Virus record (IMG/VR): IMGVR_UViG_3300006810_006497
Span: 3,918 to 67,917 of that record
Strand: one strand, 5' to 3'
Source: a virus
DNA: 64,000 nt
The notes under the pieces were generated by a model. It saw only the letters and a program-made list of their open reading frames with translations. It was not told where the DNA came from and did no database searches. Both the position numbers and the translations under genes were made by a program. The first letter of the stretch is position 1. Each line of letters opens with the position of its first letter. Below are positions 32,827-47,764 of this stretch, one piece after another.

Positions 32827-33348
32827 ATGAGCAATACGCCAACGCTTCTCGTTGCCGTGCAAACCCTGCGTTCCTACAACCAAGCATTGGCGGGAATGAA
32901 CAATGACCCCACGGCCATTGAGAATTGGATTCGACGCTACGCAGAAGCCGATTCTCGATCAAGCACATTCCCAAAGGATGCGGCCATCGGCCTCCTTTCC
33001 TATTTGGGAAACCCCGTCTTTGCATCGAGCAACATCACCGCCGATCAACAGGCGTGGTCGGCTGAGATGGCGAGCGCAGAACAGATCATGCAACAGGAAA
33101 ACAACTGGATAGGGCGTCAAACCGTTCAAAACAACGCTACAACCTTTGCACGTTTGTTTGGTTCGGATCTCGAATGGATTCAACTCTATGCTCAGTCGAA
33201 GTCAATGACCGCCAACAACGGCTGGACAAACGAATACCTCATCAACATGGTCATCGCTGATCTGCGCGTGTGCAACGGATCTGGTGGCGCAGGTGCAATT
33301 CCTCACACGGCGATGAACCCATCGTCAAGCAACAATCAGTTGCCCTGA
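32827..33348 (+). CDS. hypothetical protein (lone plus-strand gene in the late region)
   Basis: Fills the gap between two minus-strand units. Protein-like composition. Confidence 0.6.
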   Translation: MSNTPTLLVAVQTLRSYNQALAGMNNDPTAIENWIRRYAEADSRSSTFPKDAAIGLLSYLGNPVFASSNITADQQAWSAEMASAEQIMQQENNWIGRQTVQNNATTFARLFGSDLEWIQLYAQSKSMTANNGWTNEYLINMVIADLRVCNGSGGAGAIPHTAMNPSSSNNQLP

Positions 33349-34514
33349 CGCATCTTCTCCCAAGCATTTTGGAAAGCATCTTGATCGATGTTTGCCATTC
33401 CCATCAACTCGCTCTTTTTTCCTCGAACAGCACCTTTGCCGCCGCTGGTTTCCTTTCGTTGGAGTTCATGAATGTCAAAGCCCATATCGCTAATTGGGTC
33501 AACGATTTCGGGAGCAAATGAATTGAACACAACTGTTGGGAAACCGTGGCTTGCCAATCCTTCAATCAAAGCCAATGTTCGTTCTTGATCATCCATCGTA
33601 AAGAAGTCCAATGCGCCTTCTTCACCCATGTAGGGCGGATCGAGAATAAACGCATCTTTTGCGGGGTTCAACTCAATGTCGGATTCGAGTTGTTCGTGCA
33701 ACGGCCTATCTCGATATTCCCACCCCTGCATGGCTTCCGACCATGGGTCAAGTTCCCATCGACCTTTGCCTCCAAGCAACTTTTGAGGTCGGAACGTGTT
33801 GCCTGTCCCTGGTTTAAGGCGGTCTTTTTGGCCCTGCATCAAATCAAAATAAGCCGACTCAAACGATGGTTCGATTGGTTTATTCCCTGTGAATCGCAAT
33901 GAACCAGCCCATCGGTTGAACAGATTTGGGGTCTTAGGAGAATATCGCAACAAACCGTTCATCGACATATGCTGCAACACGAGGAAGAGTTGGTCTTTTC
34001 TTTGCCGCTCACGCTGACTGATGACGCCTTCTCCCTCTTTTCGTCGCAACTCATTAAACTCTTGACGCAATTCGTAAAACTTTGGCCCCATGAAGAACGG
34101 ATCTCCGCCCATCTCATCAACGAGGCTTTGAGGAACAGTTCCCAAATCCATCATCTCACCTGTGTTTGGATTTGGCATCATCACACTATCGCCCGCTTCA
34201 TAGGTGAAGGTTTCTGGCTCAAACGACAAAGAGTCTGGATCGTTGATCAAACGCTGATGAAACGATGCCAAGTCTGGGTTGATGTCCATGAGCAGAGCCT
34301 CTTGAGGCCGCATCCCCAAAGAAAGTCCCGCTGCTCCGCCAAACGGCTCAATGACTCGACGGTCTGGCATGATTTGCTTCAATGCTCGACCAATGGCTTG
34401 GTATTGAGGATTGGCTTTGTTGCCTTGGATTTTGATGGCTGGAGGCAGAGATCCTCCTGTTTGCAACGCTCTCAAAGCCTTTCGATATTGAGGGTGCATC
34501 TTACGGAGTTCCAC
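33336..34514 (-). CDS. DNA adenine methyltransferase (Dam/D12 class)
   Basis: IKIQGNK, IEPFGGAAG (motif I), DINPDL, ILDPPY (motif IV). Confidence 0.85.
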   Translation of the reverse strand: MELRKMHPQYRKALRALQTGGSLPPAIKIQGNKANPQYQAIGRALKQIMPDRRVIEPFGGAAGLSLGMRPQEALLMDINPDLASFHQRLINDPDSLSFEPETFTYEAGDSVMMPNPNTGEMMDLGTVPQSLVDEMGGDPFFMGPKFYELRQEFNELRRKEGEGVISQRERQRKDQLFLVLQHMSMNGLLRYSPKTPNLFNRWAGSLRFTGNKPIEPSFESAYFDLMQGQKDRLKPGTGNTFRPQKLLGGKGRWELDPWSEAMQGWEYRDRPLHEQLESDIELNPAKDAFILDPPYMGEEGALDFFTMDDQERTLALIEGLASHGFPTVVFNSFAPEIVDPISDMGFDIHELQRKETSGGKGAVRGKKSELMGMANIDQDAFQNAWEKMRQGN

Positions 34515-35526
34515 TCAGCATCACCTCCCATGATCGGCGGATGATGTCCCCTGTCATGGCCGCATCCCACAACTCCAACCCCGCTGAGGTCGAATCATTT
34601 GGATCAAAATACATCCCGTGAGTTCCCGTGGCGATGCCTCTCGTTAATGCAGGGATGGAATAATCGTTGCCAGCGGTCAATGAAAGAGGCACAGGGATGC
34701 CCTCTTGACGGTAGCCACCTGGTTCGGTATATTCGACATAGAGTTGTCCTTCTCGATCAGGGGCAATGTCTGTCCACGAAAGAGGAATCTGCAAAAGCGG
34801 GTCAACAGACCCCGACACTCCATGAGATCGTGCGGGACGCCATGGTTGGCCGAAGTCCTGTCGTAGTGGCAACCGTTGTTTTGGCTTCCACTTTTCTTTT
34901 GGCCCCAACGTGTTGTCGAGGATGTCGTACACCTTGTATCCAAATCGAGGGGCTTCTCCACCTGCGAAGGACAACGCAGCATCACCGAATGGGTTGCGGC
35001 CCATCTGCAAATCGCTATGCATACCGAGGATGTCCAACGGTGATTCACCTGCGTACAATCGAGCCAACTCAGCGGGGTCGAGATTGCCAGCCGTCCAAAG
35101 GTGAGCGGTTCGGTTGGCATTTCCACGTGCATCGGTGTTCGGTTGCTTTCGACCAAGCCAAGCATCAGCCTGTTTGTTTTCGTTTAGACGGAAGAACGGG
35201 TCTTTGAGAGGGAGCATATTGGCAATGCCCATGATCTGCTGGCCTCCTCGAAGAACGCTCAAGACTCCCGTATCTGGTCGGATTTGACCAGTTGATTGAA
35301 TCATGCCTGGTGAAATGTGAGGTGAATTGATGTCGATGTTGCGAAATGCCTCAATGGTGTGCGGCCTACCTACGGAAAACCCACCCCGCATCTCACGAAG
35401 ATCTCCTCCCTGCGTTTCAACTGGATAAGCCGTCAGCCCATCCATCGAAACAGTCCCTAAATCGATACGATCACGCTTGTTCCTCTGTTGGAGGAGTTGT
35501 TGCCAAGTGTCATCGAATACGCCCAT
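34501..35526 (-). CDS. hypothetical protein with leader-like N-terminus
   Basis: MGVFDDTWQQLL. No catalytic motif recognised. Confidence 0.6.
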   Translation of the reverse strand: MGVFDDTWQQLLQQRNKRDRIDLGTVSMDGLTAYPVETQGGDLREMRGGFSVGRPHTIEAFRNIDINSPHISPGMIQSTGQIRPDTGVLSVLRGGQQIMGIANMLPLKDPFFRLNENKQADAWLGRKQPNTDARGNANRTAHLWTAGNLDPAELARLYAGESPLDILGMHSDLQMGRNPFGDAALSFAGGEAPRFGYKVYDILDNTLGPKEKWKPKQRLPLRQDFGQPWRPARSHGVSGSVDPLLQIPLSWTDIAPDREGQLYVEYTEPGGYRQEGIPVPLSLTAGNDYSIPALTRGIATGTHGMYFDPNDSTSAGLELWDAAMTGDIIRRSWEVMLSGTP

Positions 35527-35535
35527 TTGAACACC

Positions 35536-46337: not shown

Positions 46338-46676
46338 GGTTCTTTCTCACCTTCTTCCCCTGCCGCCGTCCTCCCGCTCAACAAAAAAATATGGGCATAA
46401 AACGGCCTATTTGACGCCCCGTCGAGATTCGACGAGATCTCAACAAAAAATTGTCTTCGGATTTTTTTTCAAGGAACGAAGCCACACGACTCGGTTGTAC
46501 GCAGATCTGGAGAAATACCCCCAGAAAAGCCAAACAAACCGTATTTCCGCATCATCTCACGCGTAAAACGCTGTGCGGGGGTCGTTGGGCGTGGGCCTTG
46601 AAAGGCCGAAGCAAACACGCTTGCCACGGTAAATGCTAACCATCCGCTATATATGTAATCTTCTCAGTCCTGTCAA

Positions 46677-47342
46677 TCACAACATATGGCGACCAACCAA
46701 CTTCAAAGACGGATCTCGACGGAGAGAATACAACGTGTCGTGATCATCAACATCATGGTATCCAATGTAGGAATAACCGAGATCCGCTATCGCCCTCTCG
46801 ATCTCCTCGCCCCATTCTTTCACGCCGCCATAACCTCCCTCAACATTGGCCTCCCATCGAGTTGGATTATCTGTGATGTCGGGGGTGTTCAAGCCCATGA
46901 CATAACGACCGACAAGATCCTTGATGTCCTTCATTGAGTCGATAAATCGATTTTCGTCCTCGTAATATCCAGGCGGATACAATTCGAGTCGATTGCCCAA
47001 ATTGTTGAGGAGCATTTGGTATTGCTCATCCGTGAGATTCTCTTCTCGCATCACCTGCAAAGGATCGTCAAGCAAATCCGATTCAAAGCGCATCACGTAA
47101 GGAACGGACATCGGTTGGTCGTCTGGATCGTAATAGTGTTCCATCGTTGCAAGACGCTCATGTGCGTAATTCTCTGCGGCGGAACGATCCGTGGTCAAGA
47201 AACCAGGATCCTCCAAAGAATACGCTTGTTGCATCCCTTTGTGATGATTGAATGGCGGCTGGTTCGGATAACCAAAGGGAGCAGCGGTTCCTCGATAGAC
47301 CGTGGCCTTGAGCAGATCCCAACTGCGTTCAAATGCGCTCAT
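46677..47342 (-). CDS. ADP-ribosyltransferase-like protein with leader
   Basis: VYRGT, GFLTTDRSAAENYA, PYVMRF, LGYSYIGYHD. Confidence 0.6.
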   Translation of the reverse strand: MSAFERSWDLLKATVYRGTAAPFGYPNQPPFNHHKGMQQAYSLEDPGFLTTDRSAAENYAHERLATMEHYYDPDDQPMSVPYVMRFESDLLDDPLQVMREENLTDEQYQMLLNNLGNRLELYPPGYYEDENRFIDSMKDIKDLVGRYVMGLNTPDITDNPTRWEANVEGGYGGVKEWGEEIERAIADLGYSYIGYHDVDDHDTLYSLRRDPSLKLVGRHML

Positions 47343-47353
47343 AGGTAGCCCCA

Positions 47354-47764
47354 CTATTCGTTTCCTGGCCCAACGCCTGTTTCCTTCTGTCGCAATTTCT
47401 CTTCAATCTCTCGATAATACGCATTGCGCCTTGCCATTTCATCTTCGTATGACTCGTTGCTACGATCAGGGACGTTCTTGTACGCATCCTTTCCATGAAT
47501 TGAAGTCGAACCACATTCGGGACATCGATTATCAGGACGACCAGATGGCGTCATTTGCATGAAATTGTGCAACGTCCCCTCATAGCCACAGGAATAGCAC
47601 TCCTCCGTTGCATCAACCAAGTTGGGGTCGGCAACGCCCAAGATCTGCTGGATTGCTCTTAGAGCGGGATTGTTGAATTGTTCATTATCGATGAACTCGT
47701 CATCGTTGTCATCATCGTCGATTCCTTTCATGATGCGCCACACCAGATCGAAAGCACCGCTCAT
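47354..47764 (-). CDS. Zn-ribbon protein with leader
   Basis: MSGAFDLVWRIMKG. CYSCG...CPECGS. Confidence 0.65.
   Translation of the reverse strand: MSGAFDLVWRIMKGIDDDDNDDEFIDNEQFNNPALRAIQQILGVADPNLVDATEECYSCGYEGTLHNFMQMTPSGRPDNRCPECGSTSIHGKDAYKNVPDRSNESYEDEMARRNAYYREIEEKLRQKETGVGPGNE

Follow-up and report, generated by a model that had tools for sequence, protein, structure and literature searches.

Why should a row of otherwise dissimilar genes in one virus genome begin with the same short peptide? The question arises in a 64,000-nucleotide stretch of viral DNA (hereafter the window), corresponding to bases 3918-67917 of one 67.9-kb virus contig (IMG/VR record IMGVR_UViG_3300006810_006497), in which a minus-strand gene array at 33336-47764 carries a leader of the form F-x-x-A-W...K on one gene after another. 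An earlier reading of the letters without database searches (the sequence-only reading) had taken this leader for a capsid-targeting tag, by which a fused domain is loaded into the prohead, clipped and injected into an archaeal host. Our analysis leans, if not heavily, towards the same view: the leader would be a portable, protease-clipped capsid-targeting tag of marine magrovirus-like tailed viruses, for which we infer packaging, cleavage and injection.

All 14 leaders listed in the sequence-only reading were found on the minus strand, at or a few bases from where it had placed them, at 36498, 36824, 37382, 38742, 40370, 41755, 42279 (internal), 43443, 44183, 44992, 46203, 47333, 47752 and 35517. 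The leader at 38742 is an F/W-shifted variant (LFEFAFSDMLWK|A), and the one at 35517 has no Lys in the usual place; Lys-less leaders occur in 2 of the 16 array genes of the window. Beyond that list we observed an N-terminal copy with its F at 23446, an internal W-to-F copy in 26280-27788, and a C-terminal copy with its F at 33374. With a strict pattern (F-x-x-[ASTV]-W-x(3-6)-K-[AMSGT] in the first 30 residues) applied to 73 greedily called genes, matches fell in 11 of the 17 minus-strand genes of 33336-47800, in 1 of the 31 other minus-strand genes below 33336, and in none of the 7 minus-strand open reading frames (ORFs) above 47800 or the 18 plus-strand genes. The window has 12 such N-terminal matches, whereas 1000 within-protein shuffles averaged 0.024 and never gave more than 1. 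The shared leader is real and far exceeds what chance would produce.

The consensus is M-[TS]-A-F-[DE]-x-A-W-x-[LVI]-[VLM]-K-[A/M/G/S], about 13 residues, with Pro next in 118/287. A signal peptide or an archaeal prepilin-type leader was ruled out, as no hydrophobic stretch follows the Lys. The earlier description of the tagged proteins as unrelated enzymes needs trimming: they are unrelated as a set, although four window proteins fall in two mutually related clusters resembling ADP-ribosyltransferases (ART-like), and enzymes they can be called for a minority of cargos only, most having no recognisable family in Pfam or PHROGs. A small residue or Met does usually follow the Lys, as had been claimed, except that E, Q or R stands there in orthologues of the gene at 44189-45001. 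Confinement to the strand with the head genes holds in the window, and so does absence from the early, plus-strand genes; in relatives, however, a few small tagged genes lie outside the array, one of them on the opposite strand (G002, 86236-).

We then determined how widely the leader occurs, counting over 207 loci plus the window. A DNA-pattern scan for M-T-A-F-D-x-A-W (degenerate) through 2.9 million IMG/VR contigs returned 105 stretches with up to 7 exact matches each, 82 of which also encode a homologue of another, leader-stripped window protein. Over all loci there were 463 strict matches, and 390 counted as N-terminal (those with a start codon no more than 8 codons before the match and 40 or more codons after it); in 271 of these the start codon lies 3 codons before the Phe. 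Distinct cargos were counted because some loci overlap the same contigs, and they came to 341, in 138 single-linkage clusters; since part of the locus set was picked by the pattern itself, absolute tag density is biased, whereas cargo diversity is not. At least one tagged ORF was present in 122 loci, at least two in 78 and at least five in 29, the largest arrays reaching 14 tagged genes in a locus of 11-13 kb. Where a locus held three or more leaders, at least 90% of them lay on one strand (52/52 loci). As a small control, an archaeal chromosome stand-in (the 80 loci listed by the thermosome scan described below, 416,606 bases, six frames) yielded 2 strict matches, neither of them N-terminal.

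The tag proved modular, as proposed. When the eight largest clusters were compared by hhalign with their leaders removed, clusters 0 and 2 formed the one related pair of 28 (97% probability), and each of the remaining 27 scored 3.9% or less. Orthologues exist both with and without the leader. Among whole related contigs, G001 holds 7 tagged ORFs, G002 about 15, G003 about 9 and G004 1-3; the arrays of G001-G003 lie upstream of the large terminase gene (TerL) and on its strand, and arrays vary greatly among close relatives. One conserved tagged mini-protein of about 60-73 residues (cluster 8) is encoded far from the main array, at about 56934(+) in G001 and about 81211(+) in G002; it reads MTETFE[MI]AWELMK|SDEKGDNAPTNP...YPSAYANxWAxKWYKSKGGGW followed by a K-rich tail, and is a candidate small basic internal protein.

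The motif is not restricted to N-termini. Internal copies across the loci numbered 39 (distinct), 19 of them without a nearby start codon, and many of the start-less ones share the context A-S-E-D-x-F-E-x-A-W-D-S-[IV]-x-K. One locus (L114, 7878-9167) encodes a 430-residue ORF that joins, in frame, the counterparts of the 108-residue protein and the GP88 domain encoded by two separate genes in the window (35536-36839); it carries an N-terminal leader and a second one (PFDTVWLIVK|Q) precisely at the point where, in the window, one gene stops and the next begins. In addition to the C-terminal copy in the window, 2 more were found across the loci, 3-4 residues from the C-terminus. Such freedom of position, at both termini and between domains, suggests a docking peptide, with the Lys end serving for release where that is required.

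Copies also occur on the head-gene side of the genome. Directly upstream of TerL, a largely low-complexity 499-residue protein (21959-23458, minus strand) begins with MSDSFDRAWSDLQK|S, F at 23446; in relatives whose TerL is 76-94% identical the leader is kept and the body diverges, from 365 to 1110 codons. The head-module-side protein at 26280-27788 (minus strand) contains an internal leader variant, SEDDPFEATFDSLLK|ARRKYKGRR, ahead of a K/R-rich tract, and its orthologues show the full motif, for example ASEDSFTYAWDSVLK|AKRRYKGRR. Just downstream of the portal gene, a small protein (17078-17476, minus strand) starts (M)TDGFDIIAK|MDPMARR, and all 47 distinct orthologue segments spanning this site have the K-M.

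We next considered which protease could act at the Lys. Between the portal and major capsid protein (MCP) genes, the window encodes an HK97-type S78 prohead protease (10499-11863, minus strand; Peptidase_S78 PF04586, E 3.9e-10, residues 28-177) fused to a scaffold-like C-terminal part. Its candidate cleavage sites are FLLK23|S, ILK179|M at the end of the protease domain, YVIK315, NVVK335 and LQK409|S. In an alignment of 16 sequences L178, K179, K315 and S410 are invariant, and K23, M180, K335 and K409 are kept in at least 90%; the K-M at the protease/scaffold junction is present in 39 of 40 distinct segments, followed by a linker of variable length. The N-terminus of the protease (W-S-A-x-G-S-D-F-L-L-K23|S) resembles both the MCP N-terminus and the leader. 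The MCP itself (9328-10476, minus strand; HK97-fold/SU10-type, SU10_MCP, E 2.7e-10) has a candidate maturation site at ...NAWAYSGTDLLK35|A36DSP, whose residues L34, K35, A36 and D37 do not vary among 18 sequences with identities as low as 61%. Searches of PDB sequences with the MCP and protease profiles gave 0 matches, and hence no solved homologue for the mature MCP N-terminus; the ChaoS9 paper yielded nothing on cleavage sites.

The shared signature was tested as a tetrapeptide, hydrophobic-hydrophobic-K-[ASMG], by region and against 500 shuffles. It occurred 18 times in head-module proteins (5.7 expected) and 8 times in the first 30 residues of array genes (0.6 expected), numbers reached by 0/500 shuffles in either case, whereas cargo bodies (1 vs 2.0 expected) were not enriched and the tail region (5 vs 2.7) was not significantly so. 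The same signature thus stands in the MCP and scaffold as in the putative leader substrates. An LLK|A in the protein at 15357-16325 gives weak support: the LLK is kept in relatives and the following residue (P1') varies (A, E, S, F). HK97 gp4, the type S78 protease, cuts the capsid protein gp5 at K103/S104, so that a Lys|small specificity has a precedent in the family (PMC10275583).

On these results the capsid-tag reading is partly supported, in that the tag is modular, peptide-selected, on the head-gene strand and matched by sites in head proteins beside an S78 protease, and in that the cargo types (ART fold, DNA methyltransferases) recall packaged phage proteins; packaging, cleavage and delivery themselves stay at the level of a proposal. 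The leader would form an amphipathic helix with F, W and L on one face (i, i+4, i+7). Such spacing is typical of classic groove-binding helices, for example the p53 segment bound by MDM2. While the prohead assembles, the helix may dock on its scaffold, its portal or the interior of its MCP, and any protein fused to the helix would then be co-assembled. Once the shell has closed, the S78 protease would cut past the Lys at the helix end, as the similarity of the sites suggests; the same protease is predicted to cut the protease/scaffold junction ILK|M, the scaffold, and past MCP residue 35. By analogy with the internal proteins and Alt of T4 and with P1 DarB, the freed cargo, comprising ART-fold proteins, DNA methyltransferases, GNAT-like proteins, small basic proteins and many orphans, would stay in the head and exit together with the DNA when the next cell is infected. 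The steps of this chain differ in likelihood. A complex prediction with MCP, protease-scaffold and residues 1-40 of a tagged ART-like protein scored 0.02 and 0.00 against a mark of 0.32, with no control runs, and counts neither way.

Several observations weigh against a capsid tag. The invariance of the MCP site says little alone because the whole N-terminus is highly conserved, and the tetrapeptide is borderline in plus-strand genes as well (7 vs 3.4 expected, reached by 29/500 shuffles). ALLK|V at the N-terminus of 19268-20554 was dropped as a site, as it is not conserved in relatives, and a strict Lys|small rule fails because E, Q or R occupies P1' in orthologues of 44189-45001 and at the N-terminal site of the protease. 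C-terminal copies, with no cargo downstream, cannot be release sites. In the ART-like cluster 0 the catalytic-looking His lies only 5 residues past the Lys, so the leader there might be part of the fold and not a free tag. G004 has the same protease and junction site and almost no array. Finally, the array borders on the plus-strand block at the divergent junction of about 47.8 kb, a position that may mean early transcription, in which case its proteins might act unpackaged.

This last point leads to the alternative that survives best, although we consider it unlikely: the helix would be a docking or processing tag for a shared viral or host hub other than the capsid, and the tagged proteins would be made early as host-takeover or anti-defence effectors. 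The hub may be the virus-encoded thermosome, a replication or assembly compartment, or an activating or removing protease. A divergent junction is the typical site of early, fast-evolving genes, ART, methyltransferase and GNAT-like cargos are also typical of early phage effectors, the thermosome gene is conserved in the lineage, and the C-terminal copies resemble pure binding motifs. Against a hub of this kind, the tag is also found on proteins of the head neighbourhood (directly upstream of TerL; beside the portal gene), its Lys end matches the conserved protease/scaffold and MCP sites, among non-array proteins tetrapeptide enrichment was confined to the head module, and G004 retains the thermosome with almost no array.

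Less probable again is a system in which targeting and cleavage are uncoupled, unlike in T4, the tag either remaining uncleaved or serving as nothing more than a protease site, with the proteins reaching the head along another route. The C-terminal and Lys-less copies (end of 33336-34514; 35517) fit binding alone, and the variable P1' weakens the cleavage part. The HK97 protease is, reportedly (Duda et al. 2013), targeted by a terminal segment and not by a leader of the T4 type. The Lys found in all 390 N-terminal copies does not bear on the matter, as it is imposed by the pattern; Lys-less variants are nevertheless rare in the window, as counted above, and internal copies sit at domain junctions, where cutting makes sense, both of which argue for coupling.

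The weakest alternative, that the conserved segment is mainly a DNA-level cassette boundary whose repeats promote shuffling, duplication and deletion of cargos while the peptide does little, draws on the direct-repeat families formed by leader DNA, on gene splits and fusions falling precisely at leaders, on leaders gained and lost among orthologues and on arrays differing greatly between close relatives, yet is very improbable, given that synonymous positions are free in 287 leader DNAs with F, W and K fixed, that most leader pairs are too low in DNA identity for homologous recombination, and that recombination at leaders is better seen as a by-product that aids shuffling. In those 287 distinct leader DNAs Phe is TTT in 161 and TTC in 126, Lys is AAA in 168 and AAG in 119, Asp is GAC in 138 and GAT in 67, and Ala and Leu are written with several codons. 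Because synonymous codons vary so freely, selection acts on the peptide; an RNA or translation element was ruled out, as conservation sits at the amino-acid level. The repeats in the array fall into families D1, with 5 copies, and D2, with 3, of which two share 92% identity over 37 nt. Recombination at leaders probably helps shuffling; it cannot explain the conservation, since the conserved object is the peptide. As a separate observation, the Ala codon right before the invariant Trp is never GCC (0/268; GCT 133, GCA 82, GCG 53), whereas GCC leads among the Ala codons two positions before it. GCC-TGG would make CCTGG, yet CCWGG is not rare, with 46 occurrences in the first 47.8 kb.

How does the proposed capsid tag compare with known loading systems? 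In T4, the internal proteins IPI-III and the ADP-ribosyltransferase Alt are loaded via a 10-residue capsid targeting sequence (CTS) that the gp21 prohead protease removes (PMC9026906). The N-terminal part of the CTS targets and its last residues direct gp21 cleavage at L/I-x-E; the cargo includes the ADP-ribosyltransferase and anti-restriction proteins, and a role for the CTS as an evolutionary device, by which varied proteins come to be loaded, has been proposed (PMC9026906). The leader shares with the CTS a short N-terminal peptide on otherwise unrelated proteins. It differs in that the T4 protease belongs to S77 and cuts after Glu, whereas here an S78 enzyme and hydrophobic-hydrophobic-Lys are found; because both protease family and cleaved residue differ, the leader stands outside the T4 CTS family. 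The motif is also unrelated, the scale is far larger (138 cargo clusters), internal and C-terminal copies exist, and the host is presumably archaeal.

With HK97 gp4 the system would share the protease family (by Pfam), a cut after Lys before a small residue, and a protease that removes the scaffold function. HK97 differs in having no known array of tagged cargos and in that its scaffold is the MCP delta domain, whereas here a scaffold-like region is fused to the protease; moreover, the specificity of the S78 enzyme of the window is predicted only. P1 DarB, which carries a methyltransferase domain, offers an N-terminal signal for head loading as a further likeness. The N-terminal 30 residues of DarB suffice as capsid-targeting signal, and DarB, a component of the P1 defence-against-restriction system, is believed to pass into the infected cell (PMC9024508). 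Unlike the present set, DarB is a single protein whose loading needs other Dar proteins, and its signal has no sequence similarity to the leader. Encapsulin cargo peptides form another parallel, being short, carried by diverse enzymes at the N- or C-terminus, docking inside an HK97-fold shell, and encoded in clusters with the shell gene. Encapsulins, however, lack DNA, portal, terminase and protease, and their cargo peptide stays on; with TerL, portal, protease and tail genes present, the element in the window is a virus and not an encapsulin.

The sequence-only reading knew of no such system in archaeal viruses, and the literature searched, supplementary tables and subscription journals aside, gave no description of the motif or of a capsid-targeting leader there. 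What would be new is the logic of T4 built from other parts: the protease is of the HK97 type, the predicted cut follows a Lys, the motif is new and free in its position, the cargo repertoire is very large, and the host is presumably archaeal. A broader claim, which we regard as possible and a little short of an even chance, is that the leader serves as a general address label of a whole archaeal-virus order, in which an F-x-x-A-W helix at any position and a Lys-specific HK97-type protease would bring well over 100 protein families with rapid turnover (nucleic-acid or protein ADP-ribosyltransferases, DNA methyltransferases, acetyltransferases and basic DNA-binding proteins) into the capsid and, along with the DNA, into Poseidoniales cells.

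If the tag does mark virion-loaded proteins, metagenomes alone would suffice to list the injected effectors, ART-fold enzymes and DNA methyltransferases among them, and over 100 orphan families would become candidates for archaeal host takeover or anti-defence. CTS-like loading would then not be peculiar to T4-type (S77) phages, having arisen with S78 and a Lys site in viruses of another domain; it would be a viral counterpart of encapsulin cargo loading, and a 13-residue tag working at either protein end would be useful for loading HK97-fold shells.

We characterized the cargos by modelling, profile comparison and family searches. The largest tagged cluster (cluster 0, 38 members, two in the window) has, on the evidence of the model, an ART fold. 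The model has a predicted local distance difference test (pLDDT) of 80.8; the leader forms a helix at residues 3-11, and the first strand, with the invariant His of Y-H-G-T, runs from residue 15. Foldseek placed it nearest KptA/Tpt1 (E 1.3e-4) and DarT1, then toxin-type ADP-ribosyltransferases; TM-scores were moderate, at 0.34-0.40. The protein at 41761-42480 contributes its C-terminal domain to the second largest cluster (34 members), and its model (pLDDT 74, helix 65-75) found only GNAT folds as best Foldseek matches, all weak (E about 1e-2); Pfam Acetyltransf_1 was below cut-off for this protein (E 0.0035). Pfam gave no match for 8 of 10 extra cluster representatives. In the window the cargo families comprise two D12-class adenine methyltransferases, a third methyltransferase-like protein, a GP88-family protein and an HMG-CoA-lyase-like protein, the rest having no family.

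The array genes, all on the minus strand, are described here from the divergent junction downwards. At 47354-47764 a tagged gene (cluster 5, 8 members) has the leader MSGAFDLVWRIMK|G and, behind it, an acidic tract and a region rich in Cys (CxxC...CxxC); its neighbour at 46677-47342, a singleton cluster, reads MSAFERSWDLLK|ATVYRGT and has a cargo without known family. Neither gene has a Pfam or PHROG match. The next gene, at 44998-46215, encodes a tagged D12-class N6-adenine DNA methyltransferase (MSRAFHDAWNGLIEK|G; PF02086, E 7.9e-13), whose G004 orthologue (45% identity) retains AQHAWDLMK|S behind a longer N-terminus. The gene at 44189-45001 (MTAFDTAWDLVK|MFSLNWR) belongs to no recognised family; of its orthologues, 10/11 have the leader, several with E, Q or R at P1', and 1/11 starts past it. 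The genes at 43449-44192 (MTAFDQAWDLMK|APIDVY...YSGGD) and 39606-40379 (MSLFEAAWDSITK|APIYNE...YSGGD) are paralogues in cluster 2.

Between these paralogues lie three further genes. The tagged ART-fold protein at 42844-43452 (MTAFDQAWALLK|MPYYHGT) belongs to cluster 0, its fold assigned by alignment, model and Foldseek. The protein at 41761-42480 has two domains by model and Foldseek, a Cys-rich N-terminal part and a GNAT-like domain, separated by the internal leader ASEDVFDQAWDSIVK|M at residues about 63-78 (F at 42279). The tagged gene at 40376-41761 (MSFQQAWDSITK|MDF) contains an HEEGH (HExxH-like) motif; no Pfam or PHROG match was obtained, and its orthologues retain K|[MIA]-D-F, the leader being degenerate in two of them.

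An HMG-CoA-lyase-like gene within the array (38733-39602; Pfam HMGL-like, E 1.6e-24) has no N-terminal leader. Its C-terminus, ...NRFKAVWN, is a possible, weak C-terminal core motif: FKAVW[NF] is present in 4 of the 22 listed orthologues, all 4 among the six closest, and lost in the rest. The gene itself is conserved within the cargo arrays of many relatives (22 distinct orthologues in the loci), and HMGCL is already listed among magrovirus auxiliary metabolic genes (PMC10160649). The gene at 37666-38742 encodes a tagged DNA-methyltransferase-like protein (phrog_363 DNA methyltransferase, E 8.9e-6) with a variant leader, (M)ELSEPLFEFAFSDMLWK|A; the leaders of its orthologues read LFEFAFSDMLWK|S, LFQEAWSSMLMK|A and AFDEAWEIAK|A. 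A tagged ART-like gene of cluster 0 follows at 36888-37391, (M)GAFETTWELLK|MPYHIT. In the 266-nt gap between two tagged genes, a candidate gene was noted as an ORF at 37397-37750, an internal start of which reads MAQTFDPTYDLTPIK|G, a Pro-containing, leader-like variant that is probably non-helical.

The tagged 108-residue protein (MADASFEKTWQMMK|S) is encoded at 36513-36839 and the tagged GP88-family protein (MNVFAKAWDLLVK|A; PF17338, E 1.5e-24; phrog_1392) at 35536-36507. At 34501-35526 lies the gene for a 341-residue protein with the leader core MGVFDDTWQQLL, in which the Lys is not at its usual place; its closest orthologue reads MAAFNQAFDLVLK|N. The array ends at 33336-34514 with a D12-class DNA methyltransferase (PF02086, E 9.2e-9) that carries a C-terminal leader-like helix, ...DAFQNAWEKMRQGN (F at 33374). 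Its orthologues retain the C-terminal F-Q-N-V-W-E-Q-M, and distant homologues have an N-terminal leader instead.

To which virus does the array belong? Almost every long ORF in the first 47.8 kb or so lies on the minus strand. By Pfam this block includes TerL (20508-21944), the portal (17473-19275) and a tail-tube-like protein (2812-4992), whereas the plus-strand genes beyond 47.8 kb include a UvrD-like helicase (Pfam) and a group II chaperonin, or thermosome (Cpn60_TCP1, E 4e-141). Because homologues of both are present in related full-length contigs, we count the part beyond 47.8 kb as viral and reject a chimeric assembly for the GC-rich 48-64 kb region. The thermosome subunit gene (60222-61796) shows 57% identity to its G002 homologue and 42-45% to those of other relatives. 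A scan of cellular archaeal genomes gave at least 80 archaeal homologues of 40-46% identity, with no Poseidoniales label among the matches listed; it shows an archaeal-type chaperonin and nothing beyond.

Searching IMG/VR with TerL gave 122 confirmed related stretches; the analysis retained the best 80, at 76-94% identity, and some of these lie on contigs of 90-108 kb. MCP homologues numbered 1417 in public metagenome proteins, part of them from Tara Oceans data. In the GenBank phage set, the best TerL matches were Bacteroides phages at 28.6% identity, and no near-identical DNA was found among GenBank phages. To our knowledge, magroviruses have no cultured member. The genome combines what marks them, namely a tailed-virus head module, an archaeal-type chaperonin and marine relatives of about 100 kb. 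These features agree with the published description of group A magroviruses, and the archaeal (magrovirus) assignment follows from the archaeal-type thermosome, the many marine relatives of about 100 kb and the published descriptions (PMC5434244). Magroviruses are among the most abundant archaeal viruses of the surface ocean (PMC5434244). The term archaeal virus is well founded on gene content; the more specific magrovirus of Poseidoniales rests on the literature.

Two further features of the genome were noted. Base composition breaks sharply at about 48 kb, G+C rising from about 50% to about 60% (1-47800 vs 47801-64000). Counts before and after the break are 82 and 1 for GGATC, 337 and 55 for GATC, and 1 and 0 for CTAG, which is nearly missing on both sides. 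The break in composition and GATC may reflect different restriction or methylation pressure, or different origins of the modules. Between the portal-side genes and the protease, 11922-15344 encodes a 1140-residue protein without a Pfam or PHROG match. It contains QKMPGGERMFVEKKG, a candidate likeness of KxDGxR, the nucleotidyltransferase motif I.

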